Positions 23,219 to 60,255 of a stretch of 64,000 nt of DNA are shown in pieces. Position numbers and translations under genes: made by a program. Source of the DNA: Candidatus Omnitrophota bacterium (GTDB taxonomy: Bacteria > Omnitrophota > Gorgyraeia > 1-14-0-20-64-10). How positions within the stretch are numbered: the first letter of the stretch is position 1; every line of letters starts with the position of its first letter. Location: the NCBI GenBank assembly GCA_016201735.1, contig JACQCH010000017.1, forward strand, positions 7,910 to 71,909, written 5' to 3'. The notes below the pieces were generated by a model. The model saw only the letters and a list, made by a program, of their open reading frames with translations. It did not search any database and had not been told where the DNA came from.

Positions 23219-24286
23219 TCATCCCCTTTGAGTTAACCGGGAGAATTCTTCCGGATCGTGGGAACGGGCAATGGCCTCTTCATGGTTGATGATCTTTCTC
23301 AGATACATCTCCGCCAAGGACTGGTTCATCGTCCGCATCCCTTCCCGCTGACTGGTCTGAAGCACGGAATAAAGCTGATGGGTCTTCGCCTCCCGGACCA
23401 GGGCCCGGACCGCCGAGTTGGCAATCATGATCTCCACCCCCAGAGCCCGGCCGGTCCCCGTCGCCTTTGGAATCAACTGCTGAGTCATCACCGCCAACAG
23501 GACAAAGGAAAGCTGGACCCGGACCTGCTGCTGCTGATGGGCCGGGAACACATCCACGATCCGGTTGACCGTCTGGACGGCGTCCGAGGTGTGCAGGGTG
23601 GCCAGCACCAAGTGCCCTGTCTCCGCGATGTTGAGCGCCGACTGGATCGTCTCCAAATCCCGCATCTCACCGATTAAGATCACGTTGGGATCCTCCCGCA
23701 GGACGTGCTTTAACGCGTTGGTGAAACTTAAGGTATCCGACCCAATCTCCCGCTGATCAACGATCGCTTTCTTATTCGTGTAGACATATTCAATCGGATC
23801 TTCCACGGTAATCACGTGACACTGTCTCTGGTTATTAATCCACTCCACCATCGAGGCCAAGGTGGTGGATTTCCCACTCCCTGTGGCACCCGTAATCAGG
23901 ACCAACCCCTTCTTTCTCCGGCACAACTCCTCTAGGATGGCCACGGGCAGACCGCACTCTCCGAAGTTCCGAATGGCGTGGGGAAGGAGCCGCACGGCGA
24001 CGCTCACCGAACCCCTCTGCAGGAAGACGTTGACGCGGAAGCGCCCCAGCCCTACCACGCCGAAGGACATGTCCAACTCCCTCTGCTTCTCAAAGTGAGC
24101 GATCTGTTCCGGGGAAAGAAGGCTGTAGGCCATCGCCTTGGTTTCAGCGGGCGTCAAGGGAGGATGCTCGGTCCGGATCAGCTCCTCATCCACCCGGAGA
24201 ACCGGCGGAGATCCGACGCACAGGTGCAGGTCGGAAGCGGTCCGCTCCACCATCTGCTTTAACAACTGATCCACAGGCATCGGCAT
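23219..24286 (-). CDS. pilT: twitching motility retraction ATPase PilT
   Basis: 355 aa; Walker A GATGSGKSTT, PilT-type AIRNLIRE-like region (ANSAVRALVREAKTHQL). Confidence 0.9.
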   Translation of the reverse strand: MPMPVDQLLKQMVERTASDLHLCVGSPPVLRVDEELIRTEHPPLTPAETKAMAYSLLSPEQIAHFEKQRELDMSFGVVGLGRFRVNVFLQRGSVSVAVRLLPHAIRNFGECGLPVAILEELCRRKKGLVLITGATGSGKSTTLASMVEWINNQRQCHVITVEDPIEYVYTNKKAIVDQREIGSDTLSFTNALKHVLREDPNVILIGEMRDLETIQSALNIAETGHLVLATLHTSDAVQTVNRIVDVFPAHQQQQVRVQLSFVLLAVMTQQLIPKATGTGRALGVEIMIANSAVRALVREAKTHQLYSVLQTSQREGMRTMNQSLAEMYLRKIINHEEAIARSHDPEEFSRLTQRG

Positions 24287-44784: not shown

Positions 44785-45705
44785 TTGAAGATGCGGATCT
44801 GCTCCCTCCTCCCCACCGCCACCGAGATGCTGTACGCCCTGGGGCTAAGCCGTTCCGTCGTCGCCCGAAGCCAGCACTGCAGTTATCCACCCCAGGTCCG
44901 GGCGAAGCCCGTCGTCGTGACGAGCCGCGTCAAGAAGATCGCCAAGCAGGACAGTTTCGCCATTCACCAGGCGGTCCTCAAACTCCAGCAGGAGGGAGTC
45001 CACCAATTCCAGATCGATCTGCCCGCCTTAAAGCGTCTCAAGCCGGACTTGGTGATCACCCAGAATCTCTGCTCCGTCTGCGCCGCTCCTCATCCGGAGG
45101 TTTCCGCCGTTCTGCAGCATCTCTCCCCTCGCCCCCGGCTGATCTCCATCAACTCCCAGCGGCTCGATGAGATCTTTACCGAGATCCGGAAGCTTGGAGA
45201 AATGACCCATCGGGAAAAAGCAGCAATCCGCTTGACGCACCAGCTTCAACAGCGGATCGACCGGGTCCGGCAATTGGTCTCTCGAACCTCCTACCGGCCC
45301 CGTGCCTGGGTCTGCGAGTGGCTGGAACCGCTGATGGCGGCCGGCCATTGGATCCCGGAGATGGTGGAGGTGGCCGGCGGCGTCGATGGGCTGGGGGTGA
45401 AAGGAAAGGATTCCATCTGGCTGAATTGGGAGCAGGTGCGCCGCTACGATCCGGAGGTGATCGTGGTGATGCCCTGCAGTTACTCAATCTCCCAAACCCT
45501 GCGGGAGAAGAAGCGGCTCACCCAGCGCCCCGGCTGGAAATCTTTATCCGCGGTGAAGCAAGGAAGGGTGTTTGCCCTGGAAGGAAGCTTCTTCCATCAC
45601 GCCGGGCCTCGCCTCGTCGACGGGATCGAGCTCCTGGCCCACCTGTTCCACCCGACCCAAGTCCCCGGAAATTCCCTCTGCCGTCATTACCGCGCATTGA
45701 CCTAA
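44785..45705 (+). CDS. class III periplasmic-binding-protein-fold protein (BtuF/FecB-like ABC substrate-binding domain)
   Basis: 306 aa; PDLVITQNLCSVC and EVIVVMPC motifs typical of cobalamin/siderophore binding proteins; no obvious signal peptide. Confidence 0.55.
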   Translation: MKMRICSLLPTATEMLYALGLSRSVVARSQHCSYPPQVRAKPVVVTSRVKKIAKQDSFAIHQAVLKLQQEGVHQFQIDLPALKRLKPDLVITQNLCSVCAAPHPEVSAVLQHLSPRPRLISINSQRLDEIFTEIRKLGEMTHREKAAIRLTHQLQQRIDRVRQLVSRTSYRPRAWVCEWLEPLMAAGHWIPEMVEVAGGVDGLGVKGKDSIWLNWEQVRRYDPEVIVVMPCSYSISQTLREKKRLTQRPGWKSLSAVKQGRVFALEGSFFHHAGPRLVDGIELLAHLFHPTQVPGNSLCRHYRALT

Positions 45706-46373
45706 TTGGGCTCCAATCCCTTGGCAAGCGTTTCACGCCACTCGTTGAAAAACCCCTGCAGCTCCTGGAAAGGAATCGGTTCCAAGAGCCACAGCATTTC
45801 GGGCATTTCCTCTTTGAAGGTTTTGATCCGCTCCAACGCTACCGCAAGCCAATAAGAATCAAAACCGGGATCCTTTCTTTTGGCATTCTCCATCAGCTCG
45901 TTTGGCTGAAAGCCCCCCTTCTTGACCAAAACATAGAGGTCGATGAAATCTCTCAAGGCCGCTCGGCCAAACAAAGCCAACAGTTTATTGGAAGCGATGT
46001 CCACCAGACTGTCCACTTTCAGGCGCGGATATTCCGGAAACTCCTTGACCGGCTCAAACCGAAAAGGGGCGTCCTGGGCCAGTTGGATCAACGTGGACTC
46101 GCCGGATCGCTCAACGAATAGTTCGACGAACGAATGGAGACCCCTCTGGCGCTCAACGGAAATCCCTTTGGCTCTAAGCACTCCCTCTAGTCGACGACTG
46201 AACGGCTCAACCAGCTCCTCCGTCACCGTGAAAAAGTCCAGATCCTGACTCTTCCGATGGTGAAGGTAAAACTGCGCCAAGGCGGTCCCACCCGTCAGAT
46301 AAAATTGTTCGCTTTCCTGGATGGATGGGAAATTTCGAAGGATAAAATCTTGAATCTTACTGATGACCTGCAA
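45702..46373 (-). CDS. nucleotidyltransferase AbiEii/AbiGii-family toxin (type IV TA / abortive infection, DUF1814)
   Basis: 223 aa; FYLTGGTALAQFYLHHRKSQDLDFF hallmark; lower GC than flanking chromosome. Confidence 0.75.
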   Translation of the reverse strand: MQVISKIQDFILRNFPSIQESEQFYLTGGTALAQFYLHHRKSQDLDFFTVTEELVEPFSRRLEGVLRAKGISVERQRGLHSFVELFVERSGESTLIQLAQDAPFRFEPVKEFPEYPRLKVDSLVDIASNKLLALFGRAALRDFIDLYVLVKKGGFQPNELMENAKRKDPGFDSYWLAVALERIKTFKEEMPEMLWLLEPIPFQELQGFFNEWRETLAKGLEPN

Positions 46374-46623
46374 GGAAATCTTCCCAAAACATCCGCACCT
46401 CCGTTGGAAGGAAGGGGTTCACTCTTCGAATCGACTCGCGCAGCCGATTCCACGGAAGCGTCTTGAGCAAATCCCGGACATCTCCCAGCCGGCCCCGAGT
46501 CAAGACCTGCTGGACGAGAAGATCCGCCTGGGGCGGATCGTCGAGATCGATCCGCGCTCCTTCCCGAAGGAACCAGAAGAGGCGTTTGTGCGGCTGATAA
46601 TCCCGTGGCATCTTAAAGTTCAC
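46357..46623 (-). CDS. putative cognate partner/antitoxin of AbiEii (short, unclassified)
   Basis: 88 aa, overlaps AbiEii start by 17 nt, co-directional; no recognisable wHTH so assignment weak; antisense ORF 46363..46713 is an alternative. Confidence 0.3.
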   Translation of the reverse strand: MNFKMPRDYQPHKRLFWFLREGARIDLDDPPQADLLVQQVLTRGRLGDVRDLLKTLPWNRLRESIRRVNPFLPTEVRMFWEDFLAGHQ

Positions 46624-46669
46624 ACTCCCATGTCGGAGTGTATCACATTCGAGGAAAGACAGGAAGGCG

Positions 46670-49600
46670 TTACGCGAAGATCAGGAGGGCCTCGCCGAAG
46701 TCCCCCCCCTTGAAGAGGCGATGGAGCACCACGATCGAGCCCGGCTCCAACAGCCCCTGCTTCTGTAAATATTGAAGCAGCCCCGCAGTTACTTTAGAAG
46801 CGGTCTGATCATTGACTTGAATCAGCACTTGATCCCGCCGAATTGAAACATTATCGCCCCCAATCACAATCGCCGCTTCCTCCAGAGTCTTCGCCCATCT
46901 AATCAACTTCTTGTCAATCGCATCGTGAAGCCCCGGGGTCACCTGGCCCAACCACCCTTGCTGCACATAGACCGGAACCTCCGTGCCAACGAATGCCTCT
47001 TCAAGCACTGCCGGCGGAACCATCCGGGCGAGGCCCTCCCGATATCCAGCATTTTCTGCCAGCTTCGAAAGGCCGTCGAATTTATCCGCGACATCCACCA
47101 CCCGTTGCGGATCGATCAGATATAGCAGGGTATCGGCAATGACCCGCCGGGCTATGAATTCGTTCAACATATCCCGGGCCTCCTCCGCCGTCGGCGGCGC
47201 CGCCAGCGCCGGCACCGGCGCTTCGGTCTTCTTCACCTCCTCCATCCCGGCGCGCAAGCCAAACTCCCTTGCCACGTCTGGAGCAAACCTTAGTACCTCC
47301 TCTTCAGAGAGCCGAGTAAGACTCCCATTTCTCATAATACGGGCATATTCGGGTAAGAAGCTATTCTGCGGATTGAGATATTTAACGTAGACATCGCCCC
47401 TTACCGTGAATGCGCTCACATTGTCCAGAGAAATGTGCCGCCCCAAATCCAAGAAGTGGACTTCCAAATACCCATCGTCCCCCGGTTTAGGTTTACCAAG
47501 TCGGAATTCCATGCCGGGGCGATTTTCAGGTGCGTCCATGTATGCAGTCTTGAGATGGGATTCCATCGCCGCACGCTTCATGATGCCCAACTCCTGCCTC
47601 ATCTGAGCATCAAGAGATTCCTCGGCAACTTCGGTTATGCCTTTCCTTGTAATACGCAAATAGACGGGAGTATAAGCTCGTTTGGGATCAAGACGTCGCA
47701 CATAAACGTCTCCGCCAAACGACGTAAAACCCGTCACTTTCGTCAACCTGTTTTCCTTCCCAATATCCTTTTGGTGCACATAAAGAAGCTCTGCGGATTC
47801 TACCAAACTAAATGCGATTCCAAGACGGGTGTCCGGATGAACTCTATTTATCTGACGATCCAATTCGTTATAAGACATGCGAGTGCCCAATGGGGCGATG
47901 ACATCCCCACGCAGAAGGCCTACCGTCGGCGTTACTTCTGCCACGTCATCACTATCAACGAGATACTCCCTACTCTCAACCCTAAGTAAAACCTTCCTGC
48001 CGTCGGAACTCAGGCCTCGAACCACATCCCCATTGACAAGAAATCCTTTCGGCACACGCTCTTTGAATCCGATATCTCCCCGGCTGTTTGGATGTATCCA
48101 CTCGATGACATTGACATATCGACCCTTAGGATCTACTACATCAACCATCTTTGTCCCACCATCTCTTAATCTATGTGCCCTCAATCCGTACAAAGGATGC
48201 CCCTTGAGCTCTTGCTTGAGGCCACTGAACAGGTCAAATGCGGAACAGAGCACGTCAGCAGCATCGCGGGCCTGTTCGTCTGTCACGACAGGTTTGAACC
48301 CATCAAACGAAATAGGCACTGGAGTGAGAACCTGAGGAGGAACCCTGGCTGGTTCCGGGGTATGTGGCTGTGGAGTAGGCGTTGTTAACGCATCGTAACC
48401 GATCTTTCCAACTACCCCAGCAGCAGTCCCTAATACTGCCCCCACTGTCCCCACCAGAAGGTCCCGCCTCGTTAAGCCTCTTCCCTTTTTTCCCTCCTCC
48501 AGCCCGGCGGCGGGAGAAGGTGGTTCTTGCTCCCATTTAATCTCCGCTTCCTTAAAATCCATTTTGGCGACAAGCTGCGCTAAAACTGCTTTAAGGACCT
48601 TTTGAATATCTGGGGCAGCTTCCCATCGAGCGAGCCCCCATTCCTCCTTTGAGAAATCGTTGAGGATTGGATTGAATTCCTCGCCCAGCTCGCGACGGTG
48701 GTCAGGTGTAATCTTAAATTGATCCCAATTCATACCGATAAAAAGCCCCAGATCAAATGCGGATATGCCTTTCTCTTGAAATTTCTTTAACAATTTTTTC
48801 TCTGGCTCCTCCAGCCCGGCGGAAGTCTTCTTCTCAAATGGACCCGAAAGGAGTTTGATTTCAAGCTCTAGCTCATCCGGAAACGCGGGGGGAAGTTCAT
48901 TGACTTGAAATTGATAATCGGACAACCCGTCAGCGAGCAGGCGTTCCCTTACGCCATCCAGAACTGTGGGAACATTGGACCACCCCTGAATCGCCACAGG
49001 AACTTTAACCGCATCTCCCCTCTCCAAATCCAAAGCCCTCTTCGGAAAACCGACCAGATTGATGGTTGCCGCTTTACTCACGCTCTTAAGAATTCCTTCA
49101 GCCTTCTGCCATGCCTGTTGTGGAGACAGCCCCCCCTCCAACTCGGCGGCGCCCGGTAGTCGATCGTTGTAGAGAATCATGGCCAGAGCAAGGGCATCTT
49201 GCCTCACGTCAACAATTCCACGGAGATCCAGTTCCAATCCTCTCCGTGTGAAAGCATACGACAGCGTTACTGAATCGCCCTTGATATCCTCCGTGGGTTT
49301 CTTGATGTCTAGATAGAGTAATGCGCCATCCGGACCTACGGATCCGTGGAGAGGTATTGTGTCTGACATCGTTATTAGATCCGCCATCTCTCCTATTCCC
49401 CTAAAAACGGCTTCAATCCTCTTTATGTTGCCCTTGACAACGGGGTCGTCAGCGCGCGTGGGATCTGAAGCTAGTTGAGCTCTAAGGACCTCAAGCCGGG
49501 ACGCAGCCTGAGTGATTGCCAAAGCCGTTCTTTCCAGCCCGTTGAGCTGGCGATTCATGAACTCGTAGGAGCGGTGATTGACTTGCGGGGAAAGTCTCTC

Positions 49601-52600
49601 CCTCTCTTTGCTAAGTGCAGTTTTATCCGATTCCTCCCGAATTGACCGGATCGTTTTCTCCAGCTCATTGAGCCGTCCGTTCAATCGCCCTGCAAGATTT
49701 GTGCGTAATCTTTCCATGTCGGCTAGAAGATTCCGCCCTTCTTGAAGTAAACGTCCAGCATCCTCATGGGTCATATTCTCTCCGGACAAATCCTGCCACA
49801 AGGCATTCGCCCTCGGAGACAACTTCTTGGCTTCGTCCGCCCCCGTTATGATCTCATTCGACGAATGGATCTGTGCCATGAGAATTTGAAGGAATTCCCG
49901 CAGGTCCGGATTAACAGGACGAGGCAGATCAGAAACTTGGCGAAGTTCCTCTATTTCGCGCCGAGGAAGGAAAACCCGTGCCCCAGATCGGCCCTCTTCT
50001 CGTATCAACAATCCTTTCTCAGGAATAGATTGGAATGCAACGTGCTTTCTCGAGATATGTTGAGGAGCTTCAACTCCCAGGAGTCCCGGTTTACTGCTCT
50101 CGCCTCTTCCAAAACCAAACTTCCCTTCAGAATCAAAAGGGATCATCCCTTCCCCTATTTTTCTCGGATCTGCGAACCAGAAGCCGCCCTTTCCATCCCA
50201 GGCGAGAATTCCCTGGATTAAACCGTTCGGTTCAATAGGGTTTTTATCTATACGATCTGTTACGACATAGACCGTGATTGCCCCAGGTTCTCTCAAGGCG
50301 TTCGGGGAAATAAGAATTCCTCCACCCGGAACTCCAAGAAGCTTCCTCTCTTCAACCCGATTTTTGTAATCGAACATGAGTGAGCTTCCCGTCACTCTAG
50401 ATTCCACTTTCTCGACCTTTCGATAGGTCTTCTGGACCAAACCGTCCAAGTCCAAGTCGGCAAGCTCCCTGGTCTCTTCCAGCCCAGCGAGATTGTTCTG
50501 GACAAACCAGACGTCCGATTCCACCTCCGCCGTGGTGATCTGCGTCCCATCCAGGAACCTCACCTCCGTCTCGCCTCCCTCCATCGGGACTGAATAGCTG
50601 ACAATCCGGACCGCGTCGTCGGGTCCCCTCACCCGATCCCCGCCGCGCAAATTCCTCAGATCTGGCCCCGTCAGCGCCTTCCACTGCTCTAACTCCTCCA
50701 TCCCGGCGGCGGTACGAGTACCCCAGGACCGCAACCCTTCCCGGACAGCGTAGAGGAACGTAAGGAATTCTGATGATTTCCGAGAAGGCAGGTTCTGTCT
50801 TTCTTTACCTATCTCCCGCAGGATTAATCCGTTGATCTTTAAGAGAACCGGATCGGTACTGAGATCTACGACTTGGCGATCGATATAATGTTTAAAAAGG
50901 AGGTCGCCTACTTCCCTCGCCAGATCCTCCCTTGCAGAATCCTGGACGAGACCTCCGAGAGAACGAGACGCTACCAACCGGTCTACAACATGATTCCGGA
51001 GTGCCTCTCGATCGGAGGTCCATTGCAATCCTCTCCGGAGTGACTCCATTTGGTTATCATCAAGAAAAACATCACCGCGAATGGGCTGCAGGCGGATTGC
51101 ATCTCCATCCTGCGTGATCTTCATTACCTTTGTCTTCTTAACTGTAAGAGTGCTTCCACTCTCCTTAAAAGGTTGGCGTTCCTCCTCTCCGGATTCATTT
51201 GTGGATACAAGATCAAAGCCGCTGCCGTTCCACTGAAGGGTAACCATCTGCATGCCCGGTATCTCGATCATCAGACCCCTCGTCAACTGGGCCGCAGCAA
51301 CTCCGGCAACTGGGATTCGCAGTCCACCCTTAGGAACCTGCGCCTGCTTAACAACAGTCCCATACTGCAACACGGTTTTCTTCGAAGCCGTCCGGAACCA
51401 TGCCGCGAATTCCTCTCCAGCGGCACCAAACAACTTCCGCTCAGGAGCAGTCCCTTCTGCTTGAATCCCAATTTCTTCAATCTGTGATTGAATCGCCTTA
51501 GGGGTACTGAGGATAAGAACGGGTTTCCCACTTTCTCCATCGGGCTCATGCCTAACCATGAATAATCTGGGTATCTTATAATCCCTACCACTATTCAGGC
51601 TCCTTTTCTTGCCCTTGGAATTTGAAAGCACAACCTTTCTATCTTTACCCTCGGCAAGTTTAAAGCGCGCCTCCTTCCCGGGCTGGCGCGCGGCAAGATT
51701 CAAGGGCCCTGACAGAACGACGGGCATCCTTACCTCTTCTCCCGACTTGAATCGAAATAGGATGCGCTCGCCAGGTTGCAGGCGGATGGGCCCCTCAACA
51801 ACGCCAAACGAACTTTGGTCGGTTATCTTTCCAGAAAGGATGAGCTCTAACAACTTATAGCGGCTCACCACGAACCGCACCTGCCCGTTCTCTCCCGGAA
51901 CCTTCATCTCCGCCAGTTGCCCAGGGTTAACACGGTGTAAAGCCGCAAGGTATAAATCGGCGGTCTTGTCTCGATAAACGGCCCCGTCAACCGGTTTCCT
52001 TTTTTTACGAAGTTTTTGGATATCCGCGATAACTTGCTCCGCCACCTTGCGCATATCACCGTTGCCCAGGCCGGACTTCGCAAGGCGGTCCAACGCCTTC
52101 TGCACATCTCCGCTCTCAGCTTTACCCAGCAAGGTCTTAACCACCGCCGCGCCAGCGAGTTCGGCAGCCAGTTCTTGAGTCATTATCCCTCCAGATCCGC
52201 CAATACGTGAATCGGCCCACTCTCTGGAGAAATTCTTTGCCGCTGCAAAAGGATGATGTCGATTCGACAAAGCAATAATCAAGGCGACTTTTTGCCATGA
52301 AAGCTGGCTCATGATCTGCGAATAAGCTCTTTCCACTCGTGCCTTTTCTTCTGGAGTCACTCGAGTGCCCGTCGTGAGTTTGAATTGAAGGACCTGGTAA
52401 GCTCCAATAACAGCCATCTCTCTTTTTAACCTCCCCCACGCTGCCTCGAGCTCCGCATCGGTTGGCTGCACGAATCTTCTGAGAACTTTCAAGGAGGGGG
52501 CCTTAAATGTTCCCCCTTCCATGCCGGCGGCGGGGGCGGAGTTCGGGGCGGCGCCGAGGGCTTTTTCGAGTGCTTCGAGACCGGCTTCCTGCTGTTTGAT

Positions 52601-52720
52601 TTCATTGGGACGCAGGGCGAGGGCGGAATTAGGCAAGGCAAGGCATAGACTTAGGAAAAGGGCCAAAATTCTGGGATAAAAAAATAGTTTCTGACTCATG
52701 AAATTTCCTTTGTACCTCAA
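46670..52720 (-). CDS. giant (2016 aa) orphan secreted protein with internal Tat-like/TM segment; no recognisable catalytic domain
   Basis: Sec signal MSQKLFFYPRILALFLSLCLALPNSALA|LRP; long mixed alpha/beta region; coiled coil ~aa 1100-1210; GRGLTRRDLLVGTVGAVLGTAAGVVGKIG then Pro-rich linker (~aa 1520-1570); C-terminal ~450 aa with internal duplications (GDVYVRRLDPKRAYTPVYLRITRKG / GDVYVKYLNPQNSFLPEYARIMRNG); DNA ~50% GC vs ~65% surroundings. Confidence 0.7.
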   Translation of the reverse strand: MRYKGNFMSQKLFFYPRILALFLSLCLALPNSALALRPNEIKQQEAGLEALEKALGAAPNSAPAAGMEGGTFKAPSLKVLRRFVQPTDAELEAAWGRLKREMAVIGAYQVLQFKLTTGTRVTPEEKARVERAYSQIMSQLSWQKVALIIALSNRHHPFAAAKNFSREWADSRIGGSGGIMTQELAAELAGAAVVKTLLGKAESGDVQKALDRLAKSGLGNGDMRKVAEQVIADIQKLRKKRKPVDGAVYRDKTADLYLAALHRVNPGQLAEMKVPGENGQVRFVVSRYKLLELILSGKITDQSSFGVVEGPIRLQPGERILFRFKSGEEVRMPVVLSGPLNLAARQPGKEARFKLAEGKDRKVVLSNSKGKKRSLNSGRDYKIPRLFMVRHEPDGESGKPVLILSTPKAIQSQIEEIGIQAEGTAPERKLFGAAGEEFAAWFRTASKKTVLQYGTVVKQAQVPKGGLRIPVAGVAAAQLTRGLMIEIPGMQMVTLQWNGSGFDLVSTNESGEEERQPFKESGSTLTVKKTKVMKITQDGDAIRLQPIRGDVFLDDNQMESLRRGLQWTSDREALRNHVVDRLVASRSLGGLVQDSAREDLAREVGDLLFKHYIDRQVVDLSTDPVLLKINGLILREIGKERQNLPSRKSSEFLTFLYAVREGLRSWGTRTAAGMEELEQWKALTGPDLRNLRGGDRVRGPDDAVRIVSYSVPMEGGETEVRFLDGTQITTAEVESDVWFVQNNLAGLEETRELADLDLDGLVQKTYRKVEKVESRVTGSSLMFDYKNRVEERKLLGVPGGGILISPNALREPGAITVYVVTDRIDKNPIEPNGLIQGILAWDGKGGFWFADPRKIGEGMIPFDSEGKFGFGRGESSKPGLLGVEAPQHISRKHVAFQSIPEKGLLIREEGRSGARVFLPRREIEELRQVSDLPRPVNPDLREFLQILMAQIHSSNEIITGADEAKKLSPRANALWQDLSGENMTHEDAGRLLQEGRNLLADMERLRTNLAGRLNGRLNELEKTIRSIREESDKTALSKERERLSPQVNHRSYEFMNRQLNGLERTALAITQAASRLEVLRAQLASDPTRADDPVVKGNIKRIEAVFRGIGEMADLITMSDTIPLHGSVGPDGALLYLDIKKPTEDIKGDSVTLSYAFTRRGLELDLRGIVDVRQDALALAMILYNDRLPGAAELEGGLSPQQAWQKAEGILKSVSKAATINLVGFPKRALDLERGDAVKVPVAIQGWSNVPTVLDGVRERLLADGLSDYQFQVNELPPAFPDELELEIKLLSGPFEKKTSAGLEEPEKKLLKKFQEKGISAFDLGLFIGMNWDQFKITPDHRRELGEEFNPILNDFSKEEWGLARWEAAPDIQKVLKAVLAQLVAKMDFKEAEIKWEQEPPSPAAGLEEGKKGRGLTRRDLLVGTVGAVLGTAAGVVGKIGYDALTTPTPQPHTPEPARVPPQVLTPVPISFDGFKPVVTDEQARDAADVLCSAFDLFSGLKQELKGHPLYGLRAHRLRDGGTKMVDVVDPKGRYVNVIEWIHPNSRGDIGFKERVPKGFLVNGDVVRGLSSDGRKVLLRVESREYLVDSDDVAEVTPTVGLLRGDVIAPLGTRMSYNELDRQINRVHPDTRLGIAFSLVESAELLYVHQKDIGKENRLTKVTGFTSFGGDVYVRRLDPKRAYTPVYLRITRKGITEVAEESLDAQMRQELGIMKRAAMESHLKTAYMDAPENRPGMEFRLGKPKPGDDGYLEVHFLDLGRHISLDNVSAFTVRGDVYVKYLNPQNSFLPEYARIMRNGSLTRLSEEEVLRFAPDVAREFGLRAGMEEVKKTEAPVPALAAPPTAEEARDMLNEFIARRVIADTLLYLIDPQRVVDVADKFDGLSKLAENAGYREGLARMVPPAVLEEAFVGTEVPVYVQQGWLGQVTPGLHDAIDKKLIRWAKTLEEAAIVIGGDNVSIRRDQVLIQVNDQTASKVTAGLLQYLQKQGLLEPGSIVVLHRLFKGGDFGEALLIFA

Positions 52721-52931
52721 GTATATCCTCCCGATGGGGCCGTGTCAATATCCTGAGAAAAGTCCTCTGTAACTCCTTTGTTCGCAGGGGGTTGTTTAAA
52801 CAAGATATGCGTTACCGCTAACTAAAAGCCAATTTCACGCCTAGTTCCGTAACTCCGCAGAAACGCTGTAACGTATTGATAGACAGAGGATAGAAATACG
52901 GTGAATGAGGCACCCGTTTTCTTGAGCGTCT

Positions 52932-53009
52932 CCGTTCGTCCTGAGCTTGTGGAAGGACGAACATTTGTACTCGGTTCCGTTCATGGTTCGACAAGCTCAC
53001 CATAAACGG
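52932..53009. repeat. nested-palindrome REP-like element upstream of giant gene
   Basis: CCGTTCGTCCTGAGCTTGTGGAAGGACGAAC ... CCGTTCATGGTTCGACAAGCTCACCATAAACGG; family shared with 1078..1110 and 35721..35790. Confidence 0.55.
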
Positions 53010-53045
53010 TTTGCGGAGCTAAGGAAGCAGGCGTGAGCCAATTTT

Positions 53046-54272
53046 TCATGGCAACAAAGAGAAAAAACGGTCGGCTCCCATCACATAAAGGTCCTTTGCT
53101 TTCTGCACGCAGAGTCCTTTTTGGTTGACGATCTGGAGTGCCAAGTCGGCTTGCGTCTTCTCTTGAAGAAAAGAGAGACTCTTCGACAGGGAGGTTTCCG
53201 CCTCCTTGGTCTCAACAAGAAGCAGGACTTTATTTCGGTTGGTTACTGCGAAGTCTACCTCCTGACCATCCTTCGTCCTCAAATAATGGAGCTTAAAAGG
53301 ACCTTTCCCTGTCTCATTCCAATGCGCCACGGCGCGCTGTAATTGAACCGCAACGAAATTCTCGAAACGGGCTCCCCGAGAGGTCGCCATCCCCCAATCC
53401 CAAAAATACACCTTCTCCTCTTTAAGAACAGACCGAGAAAGACGTGAAGTCCAGGGAGAGACCGAAAAGATGAGATAGACCATCTTCAACGCCTCCAGCC
53501 ATGACCGGATCGAACCGTGGGCGGATTCCAACGGCTGGCGCAGCGCATTGAGGCTTAGCGGGGAACCCACCCTTTCCGGAAGCAGATAGAGCAGGGTTTC
53601 GAGTTTTCTGACATGGACGATCTTTGTGAGGTCCCTTAGATCCTCCTGCAGGATAAGAGAGATGTAGTTGTCCCGCCACCGGTTGCAAAAAACCTGCGTT
53701 CCGACGGCGAACGGTTCCGGATAGCCCGTCAGGTTAAGCAGACTCTTCAATACTTCATGGACTTGAGAACCGGCGGTTGGAACCGACTTGATTTTCTCTT
53801 CCGGGTTCCATCCATCGGACTTTGGGATGTTGGGAAGAACCTCCCGGATCCCGAGCGGCAGCATCTTAAAAAGGAAGTAACGGCCCACAAGGCTGTCGCC
53901 CGATTTTCGAAAAAGATCTAGGCGAGCGCTGCCCGTAACGATAAACCGGATTTTCTCCCGCCACTCATCATAATACCCTTTGATGAGATTCTTCCATTCG
54001 GGATACTTGTGGATTTCGTCTAAAGCGACCCAGGGCCTGGGAAGCTCCGGCGGGATATCCTCGATGAAAAAATCCGGCTTCGCGGCAAATCGCCTCTTGA
54101 CCGTTGGGGTATCCCAGTTGTAGTAAAGATGGCGCTGCCCTTGCTCGCTCAAAAACCGCTGAACCGCTGTGGTCTTCCCGATCTGTCGAGGCCCAGAAAT
54201 GAACGACATCCGTCCCTGCAAGGCCGCTTCGGAAAGGGCGGTGTGAATCACCTGGCGGCTGAAATATCTCAC
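53046..54272 (-). CDS. AAA+ ATPase, AAA_14 + DUF4143 family (COG1373)
   Basis: 408 aa; Walker A ISGPRQIGKTT, Walker B ...VALDEIHKYPEW; low-GC DNA. Confidence 0.75.
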   Translation of the reverse strand: MRYFSRQVIHTALSEAALQGRMSFISGPRQIGKTTAVQRFLSEQGQRHLYYNWDTPTVKRRFAAKPDFFIEDIPPELPRPWVALDEIHKYPEWKNLIKGYYDEWREKIRFIVTGSARLDLFRKSGDSLVGRYFLFKMLPLGIREVLPNIPKSDGWNPEEKIKSVPTAGSQVHEVLKSLLNLTGYPEPFAVGTQVFCNRWRDNYISLILQEDLRDLTKIVHVRKLETLLYLLPERVGSPLSLNALRQPLESAHGSIRSWLEALKMVYLIFSVSPWTSRLSRSVLKEEKVYFWDWGMATSRGARFENFVAVQLQRAVAHWNETGKGPFKLHYLRTKDGQEVDFAVTNRNKVLLLVETKEAETSLSKSLSFLQEKTQADLALQIVNQKGLCVQKAKDLYVMGADRFFSLLP

Positions 54273-54330
54273 ATGTCTATTTTATACATCAATCGAAATT
54301 AGTCAAGTCTATTTTACATACCTATGAAAA
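54273..54330. repeat. AT-rich imperfect direct repeat (TCTATTTTATACATC / TCTATTTTACATACC) at right edge of low-GC island
   Basis: Seen directly immediately upstream of the AAA ATPase gene at the composition boundary. Confidence 0.3.
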
Positions 54331-54343
54331 ACAGCCATACCTC

Positions 54344-54715
54344 CTACTGATCTTCCAGTGCCCCTTCGAGGCGGCCGACCAGAAGGTCCACCCGGAGGCC
54401 GTGGGCCGAGCGCAGATGGATCTCGAAATCGGTACCGGAGGGCTCCACTCCCAACAATCCACCCAAAGGAGGCTTGGCATCGTACTCCTCCCAGATCGAT
54501 ATCCCCTTCACATGGGAAATGGTCAGCCGGCACGGGACCCAGTCCTGCCGGGTTTTCCGGAAAAGGCCGGCTCCTTTGAGCGAGTCGGCGGGCGGCCGGG
54601 CGGTTTCCAGAATAAAAACCGGGCCCGGCTCCCAACAGCAATTGGCCCGGTCAAAATCAGATTCCGCAAGAATTTCTCCGACCTTCTTTAATTGTTCAAG
54701 ATTTTGGAATTCCAT
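54344..54715 (-). CDS. hypothetical protein
   Basis: 123 aa, high GC, no recognisable motif. Confidence 0.3.
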   Translation of the reverse strand: MEFQNLEQLKKVGEILAESDFDRANCCWEPGPVFILETARPPADSLKGAGLFRKTRQDWVPCRLTISHVKGISIWEEYDAKPPLGGLLGVEPSGTDFEIHLRSAHGLRVDLLVGRLEGALEDQ

Positions 54716-54732: not shown

Positions 54733-55686
54733 CTATTCACCCAGGTCCAACAACATGCACTTGACCGCCCCGCCTCCCTTTTCCAGAAACTCCGACACAT
54801 CGACCGGACACGGGACGACGCCCAAGGAACGGACCTTCTCGTACAGCGCCTCGGTGAGGCCGTCGGGCATCAGAAGGAGACGGGTTGTCTCGCCGTGATA
54901 CCGGGTCGAGATCTGGAAACTGTTGGCGGCAAAGTTCCGGCCGTCCGGATCGCTTAAAGGGACCAGGCGGCTGCCGAAGCGGCGGCGCAGGACGGCCTGG
55001 GAATCTTTAGACAGGGCGTTTAAGTAAACCAGAAGATGCTCCCGGTGAGGGCCGAAGGAATACAAGACGGTGTCCCCGTGGTAATGGGCCTCGTTGACCA
55101 GATCCAGCGGCAGGACCTCTCGCGGCTGGACGATCGATTCCAGGAGCGGCAAGGTCCGCCGATCCGACCGGAATCCGTAGACCCGCCGGTACGGGGGAAT
55201 CCCGAACCGGAAGGCCCATTTCTGCCGCTCGACCGGCCCGCAGGTAAACAGATAAACCGTCTTGGCCGGGTCGCCGGAAGGATCTCCCACTGGAATGAAA
55301 TCGGCCTCCCCCTCGAAGGGCAGCGGCCTCTCGAAGGGATCCGGCGAGGGAATGTCCCGAATCGAAAATCCCAATGAATCTAAAATTTCACGGTAATATT
55401 CCCGTTCCCCGGCCCGGCCGGGATTCAGGTTGCTTAGATAGAAGGCGTCCCCATGTCGGAAACCGGCGTTGGCCGGGAAAACAAGCCCTGGCAGTCCTGG
55501 ATCCGGAGGGACAACATGAATCCGGACCCCATGACTTTCCAGCACCGATTTTAACTGGAGCCATTGGGCGACCGCCTTTGGAAGATCCACCTTCTTGCGG
55601 CGGCCCCAGGAATCCCGGGTGTGGGGGTTGGCGCCGGAGCGGATCCGGAAATGAGTCGGGTCTCCGAGAAGAACCTGCTGCGCCAT
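54733..55686 (-). CDS. amidinotransferase-superfamily hydrolase (DDAH/CtlX-like, C-terminal catalytic Cys)
   Basis: 317 aa; C-terminal EKGGGAVKCMLLDLG resembles DDAH/arginine deiminase superfamily catalytic Cys loop. Confidence 0.5.
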   Translation of the reverse strand: MAQQVLLGDPTHFRIRSGANPHTRDSWGRRKKVDLPKAVAQWLQLKSVLESHGVRIHVVPPDPGLPGLVFPANAGFRHGDAFYLSNLNPGRAGEREYYREILDSLGFSIRDIPSPDPFERPLPFEGEADFIPVGDPSGDPAKTVYLFTCGPVERQKWAFRFGIPPYRRVYGFRSDRRTLPLLESIVQPREVLPLDLVNEAHYHGDTVLYSFGPHREHLLVYLNALSKDSQAVLRRRFGSRLVPLSDPDGRNFAANSFQISTRYHGETTRLLLMPDGLTEALYEKVRSLGVVPCPVDVSEFLEKGGGAVKCMLLDLGE

Positions 55687-55702
55687 CAGAACCGGCAGGC
55701 CA

Positions 55703-57193
55703 CTAAAAGGGAAGCGCCCGTTTGTTGAGTGGCCGGGTATCCTTCAAGACCGCCACCGGAACCGTGCAGTAGTAAGGGGAGAAGAGCCCAGCCGGTTTGA
55801 AGGAGCCGCTGGCCTTGGTGCCGCCGAAGGGAAGTTTTCCCGACGAGAAGATCGTTCCCCGGTTCCAGTTCACCATCCCGGTATCAATTCCCGGCAGGAG
55901 GCGTTCAAAAGTTTTTCGGTTCCGGGTGAAGACGGCGGTGATCAGCCCGTAGGGAACCTCGTTGTTGATCGACACGGCTTCATCGTTTCCTTTCGCCAGA
56001 TAGACGGCCGCGTCCGGCCCGAAGATCTCCTCCCGACGGTAATGGACGGACCGGTTCTTCGCCGGCCGCTCGCACAAATGGACGCTGGGGCTCACATAAT
56101 AGCCGCGCCGCTTGCCCCAACTGCCCAGCGCTTTCCCGACCCGGAGGGTCTCGTATCCTTCTTCCTCAGCCAGCTTCATGTACTTCTGGAACTTGGCCAC
56201 CGCGTCATGACTGACCAGCGGGCCCATCAAGACCCCTTCCTCCAATGGATAGCCCACCTTGACCTGGTTCGCCACCTTAAGGAAAATCTCCAGGAACCTC
56301 TTGGCGACCCGCCGGTCGACGACGACGCGGCTGGTCGCGTTGCACCGCTGTCCCGCCATGGAGAACGCGGCGACCGCGATTTCCCGGGCGGCCAGTTCCA
56401 GATCGGCGTCCGCTAAAACGAGGGCGGCGTTCTTCCCTCCCATCTCGAGGGCAAGGCATTTCTGCGGCTCCTTCAACGTCACCGCCTTGATCGCCTGCCC
56501 CGTTGCGGTGGAACCGGTAAAGAGGACCCCGGCCACCTTCGGATGGCCGACCAACCGGGTTCCCACTCCGCCGTCCCCCTGAACCAGATTGAAGACGCCC
56601 GGCGGGAAACCGGCCTCATCCAGAATCTCGGCAATCCGCTGGCCGACGAACGGGGTGTGCTCGGAGGGTTTGAAGACGATCGTGTTGCCGGTCAACAGCC
56701 CCGGGATGATGTGGCTGCCCGGCGTGTGGGCCGGAAAATTGAACGGCCCGATCACCGCCAAAACTCCCAGGGGCCGGTACCGGCACTCTCCCTTCACTCC
56801 GGGCGCCGTTTCGATGGAAAAGGGGCGGATGAGCTTTAGCCCCAAGTTCACCATCTCATCCACTTTGCCGATCAGCCGTTCCACTTCCCGGCGGGATTCC
56901 GTCAGCGGCTTGCCCGCTTCTTTGGCAATCAGACGGGTGAATTCCTCCTGACGCCCGGCTAGGATCCGCTGAAAAGATCGGAGCAGGCCGATCCGCTTAG
57001 AAAGGGACTGGCCCATCCATTTCGGAAACGCTTGTCCCGCCGCCGCCACCGCTTGATCGACCGGATCCGTTGAGAAAACAAGAGAACCGACCGGATCCAG
57101 AAGATCCCCGGGGTCCTCGCTGATCAGATCGGCCCCCTTCGAGGTCCGGACGAACCGCCCGGCGATGTAGTTACCTCGATAAAGGACAGACAT
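55703..57193 (-). CDS. NAD-dependent aldehyde dehydrogenase (succinylglutamate-semialdehyde / P5C dehydrogenase-like)
   Basis: Start MSVLYRGNYIAGRFV at 57193 with GGAGAAGG SD; ALDH motifs FTGSTATG, catalytic LEMGGKN / Cys region AGQRCNA. Confidence 0.8.
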   Translation of the reverse strand: MSVLYRGNYIAGRFVRTSKGADLISEDPGDLLDPVGSLVFSTDPVDQAVAAAGQAFPKWMGQSLSKRIGLLRSFQRILAGRQEEFTRLIAKEAGKPLTESRREVERLIGKVDEMVNLGLKLIRPFSIETAPGVKGECRYRPLGVLAVIGPFNFPAHTPGSHIIPGLLTGNTIVFKPSEHTPFVGQRIAEILDEAGFPPGVFNLVQGDGGVGTRLVGHPKVAGVLFTGSTATGQAIKAVTLKEPQKCLALEMGGKNAALVLADADLELAAREIAVAAFSMAGQRCNATSRVVVDRRVAKRFLEIFLKVANQVKVGYPLEEGVLMGPLVSHDAVAKFQKYMKLAEEEGYETLRVGKALGSWGKRRGYYVSPSVHLCERPAKNRSVHYRREEIFGPDAAVYLAKGNDEAVSINNEVPYGLITAVFTRNRKTFERLLPGIDTGMVNWNRGTIFSSGKLPFGGTKASGSFKPAGLFSPYYCTVPVAVLKDTRPLNKRALPF

Positions 57194-58199
57194 AGACCTT
57201 CTCCCCCACTTTAAGTTTGAGAAGCCGCAACGCCTCTCTGCTGACGAAACAGCGGCCCCGATCCACCTGGGCCCGAATCCGGACCGCTCGGAAGAAACCG
57301 CCCGCATCGGTCCCAACCAGAAAAGCAGGAGATTGCTTCGCCCTTCCAGGGCTCGCAATGACGGCGGCCTTCAGCCGGCGCATCTGGCGGATGAGCCGCA
57401 CCCGCCGGCGATCAGCACTGTAATAAGGCCCCCCGTCGAACGGCTCGATCTGCGCAAGCGCACGAAACCCAATTCCCCTTAAAAGTCCCGCGGCCCGCCG
57501 GGCGGCCGGATGAATGGCCCCGATCGCTTCCTGGACCGATTCCGGCAGGAGGGCGCAGTAGATCGGCTCCCGGGGAAAAAGATTCAGGATGAACTCCTTG
57601 TTCGTGACCGAGAGCCGGTCCGCCTTCTGATAAGGGAGCCCGGTGAAAACCCGGCCGACCGCCTCCCAGAAGGGACTCTTGTTCCCGGCTCCCATCGCCC
57701 CCCGGTATTCCACCAGGATTTTCCTCTCAAAGCGGTCTGGGTGGATTCCCATATAGAGGAAGCGGACATAAGAGATCTGGAGGCCGCAGACCTCCGGATG
57801 CTTCCGGTAGCCGGGGAGGACCACCAGCCCCCCCACCTCGGTCGGCCCATTGACCGTGTATCCCAACCGGAGGACCTGATGCGACCGTCGAATGCCCAAG
57901 GTGCGGCTCTGCTTCCTTATCTTTTCCAGCCCCAGCCAAAGATGCGGGCGCCCCGGTGTGCCATGTTTTCCGATGATCAGGGAACAGCCGACTAAGGTAC
58001 CGGGTACCGTTTTCCCCTCCAGAACGAAAAGATACTTCGCCTTCGCCTTGGGCAGCTTTCCGGCAAACGAGGCCTCGGAATCCCGGAGGAGCTGCCGGAT
58101 GTATCCCCGATCCGCCGGCAGATTGTAGGAATCCAGCAGTCTGGCCAGCTGGAAGAGGCCGGAGAAATCGGATGGACCCGCCTGCCGGATCAGGAACAT
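57171..58199 (-). CDS. astA: arginine/ornithine N-succinyltransferase (AstA/AruF family)
   Basis: 342 aa; family-level similarity (LFVLEGKT...GCSLIIGKHG, GNKSPFWEAVGRVF). Confidence 0.6.
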   Translation of the reverse strand: MFLIRQAGPSDFSGLFQLARLLDSYNLPADRGYIRQLLRDSEASFAGKLPKAKAKYLFVLEGKTVPGTLVGCSLIIGKHGTPGRPHLWLGLEKIRKQSRTLGIRRSHQVLRLGYTVNGPTEVGGLVVLPGYRKHPEVCGLQISYVRFLYMGIHPDRFERKILVEYRGAMGAGNKSPFWEAVGRVFTGLPYQKADRLSVTNKEFILNLFPREPIYCALLPESVQEAIGAIHPAARRAAGLLRGIGFRALAQIEPFDGGPYYSADRRRVRLIRQMRRLKAAVIASPGRAKQSPAFLVGTDAGGFFRAVRIRAQVDRGRCFVSREALRLLKLKVGEKVYVCPLSR

Positions 58200-59608
58200 A
58201 TTTTCTTTAAGAACGCCTCGTAGAACCGGACGGCCGCCCTCAGTTGGCGGAGCGAAACCGATTCATTGGGTTGATGGATGTTTCCCTTGGAGCGGCCCGG
58301 GCCGATCACGACAGAGGGAATCCCCACCTTGGCGTACAGCCCGGCCTCGGAACAGCCGGACTTGGCGGTGATTTTCACCGGCAGCCGGGCCGCCCGCAGC
58401 GCGGAAACCGCCTGCCGGACGACCGGCGCATCCCGCTTCACCTCCAAAGCCGGATTTTCCCTCTCCAGATGGAACTGCCAGTCGGAACCCGGATGCCCGA
58501 ACCGTTTCCACAGTTTCCCTTCAAAGGCCTTGATCGTCCGCTCCACTCTCTGCCCGGGGAGCGAACGGATGTCCATCGCCATGCTCCATCCCTCCTTGGT
58601 TTCCCGGAGAAGGGTCGCGTTCCAGGTGAGATGGGGCGGCTGGAAATCCCGGTCCCGCGGTTTCTCCAGCGGTTCTAAGAGGGTCCCCAGGGTATCGAGG
58701 GACCAGACGGCGTCCGCCCAGGGCAGCGTCGGGTACCAGCCCGGTTCAAGCCGCTTGGACCGCACCTGACAATCCCGCGTGGACCGGAAATTCATCTTCG
58801 GGGAATCTCCCAATGAGAAGCGGACCACCGCTTGAGCCGGGATGATGTTATGGCCCGTCCCGCCGGTCCAAGAGAGGACCTGACACTTTTTCACCTTCGG
58901 CTGGAGTTTCCGCAAGAATTCGATTGAGGTACCGATGGCATTGACTCCCAGATCCGGCGTGCTGGAATGGGCCGGGCGCCCCGTGCAGGTCAACTCGTAG
59001 ACCCACTCGGCGGCCGACGGGCGATGAAGGCCCCGCGATTTAAAGAGAAGTTCAACCACCGCGAACCCTTTGTGGCGCGTGACCAGGGAAAGTTCCGACG
59101 GTTCCCCCACCAGAGCCATCTCCGGTCTGGGGAATTCCCCCTGACAAAACCGGGCGGCCCCCCGCAGCCCGGATTCCTCCCCGAAGGTTCCCAGCAGAAT
59201 CACCGGCCGCTTCAAGGAGTCGGGTTTAAACTGACCGACGGCGAGCAGTTTGCATAAGAAATCCAGTTTTGTGTCGGCCGCCCCCAGACCGTACAGGGTG
59301 TCTCCCCGAACCGTCAGTTTCCACGGATCTGCGCCGGTCTTCGTCCAGAACCGGGGATTGCCGGAATCCACCGTGTCCAGGTGAGTGGTGAGAAGAAGGG
59401 GCGCCCCTTTGCCTTTTCCGACGAGGCCGGCCACATTCATGAACAGGACTCCATCCTCCGAGCGGCTGTCTTGATAGGAAATTTGGGCGCCAAGTTTACG
59501 CAGGAGGGAACCGACGTAGACGGCGCAGTCGGCGTTGCTGTTCCAGGTGACGGTATTAAACCGGATGAGGCGCTTGGCCTCGTCGATCAGATGGAAGGGG
59601 GCGGCCAT
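58190..59608 (-). CDS. M20-family metallopeptidase / deacylase (ArgE-DapE-like)
   Basis: Start MAAPFHLIDEAKRLIRFNTV at 59608; HLDTVD, GAADTK, GEESG-like (GTFGEESG) metal-binding motifs. Confidence 0.7.
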   Translation of the reverse strand: MAAPFHLIDEAKRLIRFNTVTWNSNADCAVYVGSLLRKLGAQISYQDSRSEDGVLFMNVAGLVGKGKGAPLLLTTHLDTVDSGNPRFWTKTGADPWKLTVRGDTLYGLGAADTKLDFLCKLLAVGQFKPDSLKRPVILLGTFGEESGLRGAARFCQGEFPRPEMALVGEPSELSLVTRHKGFAVVELLFKSRGLHRPSAAEWVYELTCTGRPAHSSTPDLGVNAIGTSIEFLRKLQPKVKKCQVLSWTGGTGHNIIPAQAVVRFSLGDSPKMNFRSTRDCQVRSKRLEPGWYPTLPWADAVWSLDTLGTLLEPLEKPRDRDFQPPHLTWNATLLRETKEGWSMAMDIRSLPGQRVERTIKAFEGKLWKRFGHPGSDWQFHLERENPALEVKRDAPVVRQAVSALRAARLPVKITAKSGCSEAGLYAKVGIPSVVIGPGRSKGNIHQPNESVSLRQLRAAVRFYEAFLKKICS

Positions 59609-60255
59609 AGCTCGCACATCACTCCATCCACTCCCAGCGCGGAAAACCGCTTTAACTGCGTGGGGGTTCGGACGGTCCAGACATAACATCTTAAGCCGGC
59701 TTCGTGGACCCGACGCAGAGATCCCTTCGTGATCCAGCCCCGGTAAACGAGCAGGCCCGTCAGTTTCAACCGCCGGGCTTGACCGACTCGGCTTCGAGTC
59801 ACACGGGCTCGGAAACCGGTCACCCAGAAAAGCGGCCTCTTCCCGAGCAGCCGCCGCCATCGCTTGAGACTGGCCTTCGTTCCTGCTCCCACCACCGTCT
59901 GATGGAGCCAACCGGACTGCTTCAAGACCTTAAAAAGTTCCCCTTCTCCTTGGGTGACCTTCACATCCAGGACCACCCGCACATGACGGCGGCGGCACAG
60001 ATCCAGAACCTGAGTGATCCGGGGAATTCCCAGCGGACGCAGCGCCGTCCAGGGAGTGCGGGCGAGAATCCCCCTGCGGCCGGTGGTCCGCCGAAGGGTC
60101 AGATCATGGAAAGCAACCCACACCCCGTCGGAGGATCGGCGGACATCCGTCTCCACTGCCTTGGCCCCCTTGGCGATAGCGGACCGGAACGAAGCCAGGG
60201 TATTCTCCGGGGCGTGGACCGGATCCCCCCGATGCGCGATCAGCAAAGGGTGCAT
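59587..60255 (-). CDS. glycerophosphodiester phosphodiesterase family protein
   Basis: Start MHPLLIAHRGD at ATG 60255 (AGGA SD); GDPD motifs HRGD...ENTL, ETDV. Confidence 0.7.
   Translation of the reverse strand: MHPLLIAHRGDPVHAPENTLASFRSAIAKGAKAVETDVRRSSDGVWVAFHDLTLRRTTGRRGILARTPWTALRPLGIPRITQVLDLCRRRHVRVVLDVKVTQGEGELFKVLKQSGWLHQTVVGAGTKASLKRWRRLLGKRPLFWVTGFRARVTRSRVGQARRLKLTGLLVYRGWITKGSLRRVHEAGLRCYVWTVRTPTQLKRFSALGVDGVMCELWPPPSI

Follow-up and report, generated by a model that had tools for sequence, protein, structure and literature searches.

What kind of protein is encoded by an open reading frame (ORF) of 2016 codons in which no known domain can be recognized? The question is raised by a minus-strand ORF at positions 46670..52720 of a 64,000-nucleotide (nt) stretch of a Candidatus Omnitrophota genome (contig JACQCH010000017.1, positions 7,910 to 71,909; the whole stretch is referred to below as the window). 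An earlier note on this DNA described the product as an isolated giant protein with a cleavable signal peptide, an internal twin-arginine (Tat) or transmembrane (TM)-like segment and a duplicated C-terminal module, and proposed it as a candidate novel surface, toxin or defence effector. The answer suggested by sequence comparison is that the gene belongs to an undescribed, rare protein family of motif-punctuated mosaics; a tentative further step, just short of an even call, is that the product is a polyprotein precursor cleaved at the motif.

The ORF is a genuine gene. It is stop-free throughout its 2016 codons, as originally described, with a revision of the start: a near-consensus promoter (TTGACA-17-TATACT) has its -10 box where the listed TTG start at 52720 lies, so that the ATG at 52699 (aaaggaaatttcATG; upstream sequence aaaggaaatttc) is the likely start codon of a product of 2009 amino acids (aa). 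Residue numbers below refer to this product unless 2016-aa numbering is named. Gene calls in two separate Logan assemblies (SRR12113409 and SRR12113410) give the identical 2009-aa product, and the G+C content (GC) at the three codon positions (GC1/GC2/GC3 = 0.62/0.41/0.54) is typical of coding sequence and uniform along the gene. The gene, its promoter-like site and the parts of its product are as follows.

46670..52699 (-): coding sequence of the mosaic protein, likely extent, 2009 aa plus stop; the listed ORF reaches the TTG at 52720
52720..52748 (-): promoter-like site TTGACA-17-TATACT just 5' of the ATG, 11 of 12 consensus matches, recognized by consensus match only
52514..52699 (-): conserved N-terminal leader, residues 1-62, which aligns with at least 18 relatives
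50708..52513 (-): cargo module A, residues 63-664, no relatives found (the index-free HMMER search spanned residues 810-2009 only)
50693..50707 (-): junction motif AGMEE, residues 665-669, GCC GGG ATG GAG GAG
50489..50692 (-): short module a, residues 670-737
50474..50488 (-): junction motif AGLEE, residues 738-742
48821..50473 (-): cargo module B, residues 743-1293, no relatives for residues 810-1293 in the index-free HMMER search
48806..48820 (-): junction motif AGLEE, residues 1294-1298
48509..48805 (-): short module b, residues 1299-1397
48494..48508 (-): junction motif AGLEE, residues 1398-1402
48398..48484 (-): twin-arginine or membrane-anchor-like segment, residues 1406-1434, 4 residues past the motif, with K/R on its N-terminal flank
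48314..48391 (-): Pro/Thr-rich linker, residues 1437-1462
47879..48313 (-): domain X, residues 1463-1607, no relatives found in the index-free HMMER search
47582..47878 (-): duplicated module copy 1, residues 1608-1706, helix, seven-strand beta meander, helix
47255..47581 (-): duplicated module copy 2, residues 1707-1815
47237..47251 (-): junction motif AGMEE, residues 1817-1821
46673..47236 (-): family-defining C-terminal domain, residues 1822-2009 (structured from about 1838), ending GDFGEALLIFA-COOH

The element that organizes this layout is the pentapeptide AG[LM]EE. Seven copies of the pattern AG[LM]E are present (residues 39, 58, 665, 738, 1294, 1398 and 1817), five of them strict AG[LM]EE and two relaxed, compared with a mean of 0.15 and a maximum of 3 in 20,000 composition-matched shuffles; elsewhere in the six-frame translation of the 64-kb window, AG[LM]EE is absent. 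The copies split the protein into the leader (1-62), modules A (63-664), a (670-737), B (743-1293), b (1299-1397) and C (1403-1816) and the last segment (1822-2009). The leader consists of a signal peptide at residues 1-28 (K4/R10, h-region ILALFLSLCLAL, cut ALA/LR), with the features given in the earlier note, and a helix with AGLEA at 39-43, followed by AGMEG at 58-62; its pattern LPxx[AS]x[AG][LM]R is unique in the six-frame window.

The modules between the motifs are mutually unrelated, their Smith-Waterman scores being equal to those of shuffles, and the idea of an ancient triplication of the large modules, which had come from the motif spacing of about 627 aa, is thereby ruled out. The duplication noticed earlier near the C-terminus is real, the best 30-aa diagonal between its copies (residues 1608-1706 and 1707-1815) scoring 68 as opposed to at most 39 in 10 shuffles, and copies of this module are also present in other proteins; the beta-meander structure is a model from one module copy. 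Module B contains, by eye, an FHA-like stretch at about 850-915, where the FHA profile is unmatched (Pfam, E<=1), and a coiled-coil-like stretch at about 950-1080. The whole protein is without a match in Pfam, NCBIfam (E<=1), PADLOC, PHROGs and PDB sequences, in agreement with the original impression, and no activity can be assigned to its cargo (A, a, B, b, domain X and the two beta-meander modules). Two degenerate forms of the motif, GAAELEGG in module B (49130-49153 (-), residues 1183-1190), which is also a member of the DNA repeat described below, and DAELEAA in module A (residues 82-86), may be decayed junctions within these modules. At residues 185-307 (about 51779-52147), phmmer finds a weak resemblance to HutP, an RNA-binding regulator (PDB 4ok9, E 0.02), that is probably due to chance.

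The protein is not an isolated orphan. An index-free HMMER search with residues 810-2009 against 1.84 billion representatives yielded 48 proteins including the query itself. Among the 47 other matches, 44, in proteins from 87 to 2343 aa long, cover only the last 170-190 or so residues, always at their own extreme C-terminus; P0022 and P0048 match the duplicated module alone, and P0047, a 1115-aa perfect tandem-repeat protein, is a spurious low-complexity match. A word-indexed search of 5.8 billion proteins returned the query itself only, nothing with the C-terminal domain and one fragment with the profile; when queried with the C-terminal 210 aa, it failed to return even the self-match. The family comprises about 45 divergent clusters from NCBI, JGI, ENA and Logan. 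A literature search for the junction motif and for Omnitrophota polyproteins found nothing.

Three features, and only those, are common to the relatives: the leader, the AG[L/A/M]EE punctuation and the C-terminal domain of about 185 aa. The leader can be aligned residue by residue, with the consensus RFLALxLxLxLPxPAFA/LRP...GLEExL...P-AAG[LMA]EE (the slash marks the cut; domain E 3e-9 for P0012 and 7.5e-8 for P0011). The C-terminal domain matches those of the relatives with E from 1e-9 to 1e-29 in a family-restricted search, lies at the extreme C-terminus and ends in hhhF[AV]. Between the motifs the relatives carry cargo of very different kinds: Pfam detects a glutamine amidotransferase, calcineurin-like phosphoesterase, GNAT, alpha/beta hydrolase, WD40 propellers, RNA polymerase alpha-CTD-like, PP2C, Xre-type helix-turn-helix and DUF7790 domains, and receiver and Fic-like modules are recognizable by eye. 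These Pfam domains fall between the motifs, and modules recur across members in changed positions and combinations, with alignments that begin at the motif or a few residues from it; the family members are therefore cassette mosaics in which the motif is the cassette boundary.

Across 45 family representatives that are pairwise less than 50% identical (32,122 residues), AG[LMA]EE is observed 78 times against 0.34 expected. The family logo is P-P-A-A-G-[L67/A32/M16]-E-E, with Pro or Ala usually ahead of the motif; Ala occupies the variable position in 32 of 123 loosely matched family motifs, about one quarter. Outside the family genes, the six-frame translations of eight further loci contain a single case, an AGLEE in the ORF at 3855-4379 of locus L005, which we regard as a chance match because the ORF is Gly/Arg/Pro-rich and non-coding-looking. 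The residue at the variable position is homogeneous within proteins (138 same-residue pairs against 83 +/- 7 after shuffling, with a maximum of 115 in 10,000 shuffles): P0023, for instance, has nine AGAEE copies, and P0006 has exclusively xGLE[A/S/M].

Four of the five strict copies in the gene under study are encoded by GCC GGG (C/A)TG GAG GAG. In loci L004 and L005, which together contribute six AG[LM]EE motifs, the Glu codons are GAG at all 12 positions; the Leu and Gly codons vary in other loci (TTG, CTC and CTA; GGT and GGC), and the peptide is unchanged. Conservation of the peptide despite codon changes indicates that selection acts, at least partly, on the peptide, with additional selection at the DNA level being possible. 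The sequence in which one and the same beta-meander module ends, together with its junction, depends on the protein: EFGL-R-AGMEE in the protein studied here, EFGI-S-AGAEE in P0002, DFGI-TSNQVQ-GMAE in P0048 and DFNL-L-GARL in P0022. The junction is accordingly lineage-specific and lies outside the module fold. The latter two proteins have neither AGxEE nor the C-terminal domain; in place of AGxEE, P0048 (1505 aa) has V[KQ]GMAE[QSR]F four times and P0022 (2273 aa) has x[AVS]R[LMV]x about seven times. P0048 also has one module in common with P0028, which is a family member (44% identity over 173 aa). Mosaics of the punctuated kind may therefore extend beyond the AGxEE family.

An argument that bears on the fate of the chain comes from the segments that follow some of the motifs. 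The Tat- or TM-like segment exists and is the sole internal hydrophobic stretch of the protein (GRGLTRRDLLVGTVGAVLGTAAGVVGKIG), but it is located at residues 1406-1434 (1413-1441 in 2016-aa numbering), not at 1520-1550 as first reported; the Pro/Thr-rich linker behind it was correctly noted. Its Tat-type motif and h-region (TRRDLLVGTVGAVLGTAAGVV) are internal and would become N-terminal only if the chain were cut at residue ~1399. Behind the motif the protein continues as AGLEE-GKK-GRGLTRRDLLVG; the equivalent sequences are AGLEA-VTRRTFLAGMGAATVAP in P0006, AGLEE-NSSRISRRRFIWTAAGALAG and AGLEE-GGFRKWLSRNGEWLFVALTMVG in P0029, and AGMEE-GDSKARGRLLKWGLAALVVGG in P0013. In P0001, P0006, P0013 and P0029, twin-arginine or hydrophobic segments begin 4-20 residues past the motif and have K/R on the N-terminal flank, which by the positive-inside rule implies an N-in/C-out orientation. 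This orientation conflicts with an uncleaved chain exported via the N-terminal Sec signal, for which the opposite one is needed, and such segments would make sense if each module gained its own N-terminus in the cytoplasm.

The C-terminal domain could be modelled with confidence. For the C-terminal 500 aa, for which structure prediction had been recommended, AlphaFold2 models cover this domain (alignment A1; predicted local distance difference test score 94.5, predicted template modelling score 0.87) and, as mentioned, a single copy of the duplicated module. In the model, a short helical subdomain comes first and an alpha/beta sandwich second, and the last strand of this sandwich is the conserved ...LIFA terminus. 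A Foldseek comparison of the model with the PDB gave nothing at E<=0.001, and the sequence profile has no significant match among PDB sequences. There is no invariant Cys, His, Ser or Asp in the domain alignment, in which the near-invariant residues are Gly, Ala, Thr, Leu and Phe; a protease role is therefore unlikely, and a function in recognition, docking or assembly is the default guess.

Taken together, the lineage-specific junction, the homogeneity of motif variants within proteins, the targeting-like segments and the motif logo favour a polyprotein that is cut by a co-evolving protease. The logo would fit a processing site and resembles those of the signal-peptidase type, with Pro at -4/-5, the small residues A-A-G at -3/-1 and acidic residues after the cut. 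In the proposed mechanism, the motif would be the recognition site of a trans-acting, lineage-matched endopeptidase that co-evolves with it, the scissile bond possibly lying between G and [LAM] (a guess), and each module, once cut out, would become a separate protein with an N-terminus of its own. Module C, once freed, would start with LEEGKKGRGLTRRDLLVG..., a ready twin-arginine signal or N-in anchor followed by the Pro/Thr stalk. The leader and the C-terminal domain would serve in the targeting or recognition of the precursor rather than in catalysis. Export of the protein, cleavage at the motif and re-targeting of module C by its Tat-like N-terminus are all steps that we infer.

Several considerations weigh against cleavage, the case for which consists of arguments from topology and architecture. 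Rules of thumb were used to assign the signal peptide and the topology, and the internal segments of Tat type could be remnants of gene fusions. No protease was found encoded in cis or in the gene neighbourhood, no protease or transporter gene is conserved beside the family genes in the loci examined, and self-processing by the C-terminal domain appears unlikely given its alignment. Moreover, the codon bias of the motif is improbable under the gene's own usage (GGG in 5 of 5, CTG in 3 of 3 and GAG in 9 of 10 cases), and the motif DNA together with the upstream GCC GCC forms the top direct-repeat family in the gene. This conservation at the DNA level could reflect recent copying or gene conversion, a microhomology joint or an effect of GGAGGAG in the mRNA.

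If the polyprotein interpretation is correct, it could extend beyond this family. It is possible, although with a chance well below even, that Omnitrophota use true polyproteins, in which a secretion-tagged precursor with several unrelated enzymes or effectors would be processed by a dedicated, lineage-matched protease at AG/xEE (or at GMAE and GARL in sister lineages), some of the modules would be re-targeted by Tat or anchor signals of their own, and the same principle would explain both the processing of the giants of 10,000-150,000 aa and the in-frame exchange of cassettes.

The strongest alternative, which we nevertheless consider unlikely, is that the protein is an uncleaved mosaic of the cell surface or periplasm, in which AGxEE is a linker and its 15-20 nt of DNA (CC GCC GCC GGG CTG GAG GAG) provide microhomology for in-frame cassette exchange between paralogues or strains; such a protein would diversify like a polymorphic surface or effector protein and act as one chain. 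The non-random motif codons and the rank of the motif as the top direct DNA repeat in the region are readily accommodated by this scheme, as are the shuffling of modules with breakpoints at the motif and the homogeneity of variants within a gene, which would be expected under concerted evolution. However, the motif peptide is kept among relatives that are less than 50% identical even where other Leu and Gly codons are used, 15 nt is short for homologous recombination, and the N-in signal or anchor segments right behind the motifs do not fit an uncleaved Sec-exported chain.

Improbable, but worth considering in view of the Glu codons, is that GGAGGAG within CTG/ATG-GAG-GAG is an internal Shine-Dalgarno or pause site, such that the modules are made or folded separately from one stop-less message. 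GAG GAG is indeed favoured over GAA both here and in L004 and L005, and the variable residue is often encoded by ATG, CTG or TTG. Nevertheless, none of the five sites has a start codon at a consistent distance of 5-10 nt behind GGAGG, the [LM] codon precedes the Shine-Dalgarno-like bases instead of following them, and the 32 motifs with Ala (GCN) at the variable position are not accounted for.

A toxin or defence effector, as the earlier note envisaged, that would be part of a defence island and act together with its AbiE and AAA_14/DUF4143 neighbours is very improbable, even though the setting that suggests it was accurately described. The gene is compositionally foreign (GC 0.525 compared with 0.60 for the rest of the window; GC3 0.54 compared with about 0.77 in the neighbours) and occupies a low-GC island between an AbiEii toxin gene and an ATPase gene that matches the PADLOC candidate PDC-S01. 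The surroundings include the following features.

9843-24286 (-): type IV pilus/type II secretion system-like cluster with secretin, T2SSB-like, PilM, DUF4900 protein, PilC-like, two PilB/GspE-like ATPases and a PilT-like ATPase
~45500-54500: low-GC island, GC about 0.52 (0.49-0.56) compared with about 0.60-0.65 around it, containing AbiE, the mosaic gene and the ATPase
45702-46623 (-): AbiEii nucleotidyltransferase toxin gene, Pfam E 5e-17, together with the small ORF that precedes it
46357-46623 (-): ORF of 84-88 aa before AbiEii, 17-nt overlap with the AbiEii start, no family match
53046-54272 (-): AAA_14 and DUF4143 ATPase, PADLOC candidate PDC-S01, E 1.9e-61
54306-54279 (-): promoter-like site of this ATPase
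54344-54715: ORF of 123 aa upstream of the ATPase, no family match
54733-59911 (-): arginine succinyltransferase-pathway-like set with DDAH/amidinotransferase-like, aldehyde dehydrogenase, AstA and M20 peptidase genes, then a GDPD gene

The 84-88-aa ORF presumably encodes a divergent AbiEi-type antitoxin. The island is bordered by a periplasmic-binding-protein gene on one side and the arginine-succinyltransferase-pathway-like cluster on the other, and no tRNA, integrase or flanking direct repeats were found at it. The family gene of L004 is likewise GC-poorer than its flanks (0.53 compared with 0.58-0.64), which fits horizontal movement of family genes; the mosaic gene was probably acquired horizontally, into a low-GC island that also holds AbiE and the ATPase. 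The rest of the window contains housekeeping genes (IleRS, EPSP synthase, MreB, PBP2, RodA, Obg, RNase G) and the type IV pilus/type II secretion cluster; a conserved gspD/E/F locus has been reported across Omnitrophota (10.1101/2023.11.21.568195).

The other family loci speak against a role in defence. A genome scan found three, all in Candidatus Omnitrophota metagenome-assembled genomes (PCVW01000066, JAHFFF010000033 and JACPXU010000049), and a metagenome scan found four more contigs with family genes, both scans having used a narrow back-translated pattern that returned few loci; a scan of viral contigs found no relatives. The neighbours vary by locus: in four other loci the genes beside the homologues are fabD/fabF/fabI and smc, Rrf2 and the suf operon, or those for an HD-GYP protein and an amidase. 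The relatives reside in housekeeping contexts that lack Abi and AAA_14 genes. Given that the neighbours are not conserved, the adjacency of AbiE and the ATPase looks like incidental island cargo, and PADLOC and PHROGs are blank for the protein itself. What stands of the earlier proposal is that the protein is novel, has an export-type leader and a meaningful internal Tat-like segment, and lacks any known catalytic or adhesin domain; a tie to Abi or to defence does not. The smc gene beside the family member in PCVW01000066 (L003 10414-13020 (+)) has an apparent intein-like insertion of about 540 aa directly after Walker A (insertion site GPNGCGKC/LAPS...VVHN/SNIADAI, the slashes marking its ends).

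The least tenable explanation, an assembly or sequencing artefact that fused several genes, which the earlier note had raised as a caveat and which the Tat-type N-terminus-like internal segment and the resemblance of the modules to independent proteins might suggest, can be dismissed almost entirely: the recovery of the same product from two separate assemblies makes such an error unlikely, 6 kb is stop-free with a uniform codon-position GC pattern, and the same stop-less, motif-joined architecture is present in about 45 divergent clusters.

Each of several known systems resembles the mosaic family in part. The segment in module C is similar to Tat signal peptides in that TRRDLL and the Gly/Ala-rich h-region match the (S/T)RRxFL consensus, but it lies within the chain, with 1405 residues ahead of it. 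On the N-terminal side of the putative cut, the small residues A-A-G are similar to -3/-1 or GG-type processing sites, the latter known from double-glycine (C39-processed) leaders; the junction, however, is A-G rather than G-G/A/S and has no upstream leader helix. With the polymorphic toxins (Rhs, CDI, LXG) the family shares conserved termini, hypervariable, horizontally exchanged cassettes and foreign composition. Those toxins have one variable C-terminal toxin domain and an adjacent immunity gene, whereas here the C-terminus is conserved and several internal cassettes vary; RHS/YD, LXG or an immunity gene was not found for the protein in Pfam, NCBIfam or among the neighbours.

Polyproteins of the viral and gingipain types likewise comprise several units in one ORF, with a short uniform recognition sequence between them, but their protease is known and is usually located within the polyprotein, unlike the mosaic gene, which has none in cis or nearby. 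MARTX toxins are mosaics of effector modules between conserved ends, the modules being released at inter-domain linkers and shuffled between strains. The interchangeable modules between conserved N- and C-terminal regions are a feature in common; MARTX differ in their glycine-rich repeats, in-cis cysteine protease domain and type I secretion signal, in comparison with a mosaic protein that is negative in Pfam and NCBIfam (E<=1) and has a C-terminal domain without conserved Cys or His, and there is no sequence or fold relation between the two.

The closest parallel is found within the same phylum, to judge from the located relatives. The Omnitrophota, nanobacteria that have not been cultivated and are probably predators or parasites, are known for multi-enzyme proteins of enormous size. 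As in the mosaic family, many unrelated enzyme-type domains are tiled in one polypeptide in these giants, a signal peptide and internal TM helices are common, and cleavage has been proposed, with the cleavage points unknown (West-Roberts et al., 2023, 10.1101/2023.11.21.568195). A 2026 preprint describes multi-enzyme long proteins with a signal peptide and TM segments across Omnitrophota and does not mention motifs or processing (10.64898/2026.06.07.730766). The very long proteins differ from the mosaic family in being 10 to 70 times longer; C39, S8, SecA, dockerin and TSP3 domains have been described in the giants of the 'Archaeovorin'/dockerin type, none of which is detected here by Pfam; and, by description, reports on them mention neither a junction motif nor a conserved leader or C-terminal domain. 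If cleavage at the motif is true, the family would represent a rare case of virus-like polyprotein expression in bacteria and would show by what rule giant ORFs can be divided into functional units; if it is not, the motif still marks the in-frame cassette boundaries of a mosaic secreted family. With its explicit and statistically very strong junction motif, conserved leader and confidently modelled C-terminal domain without a structural match in the PDB, the mosaic family offers a small, tractable version of the Omnitrophota giant-protein design.

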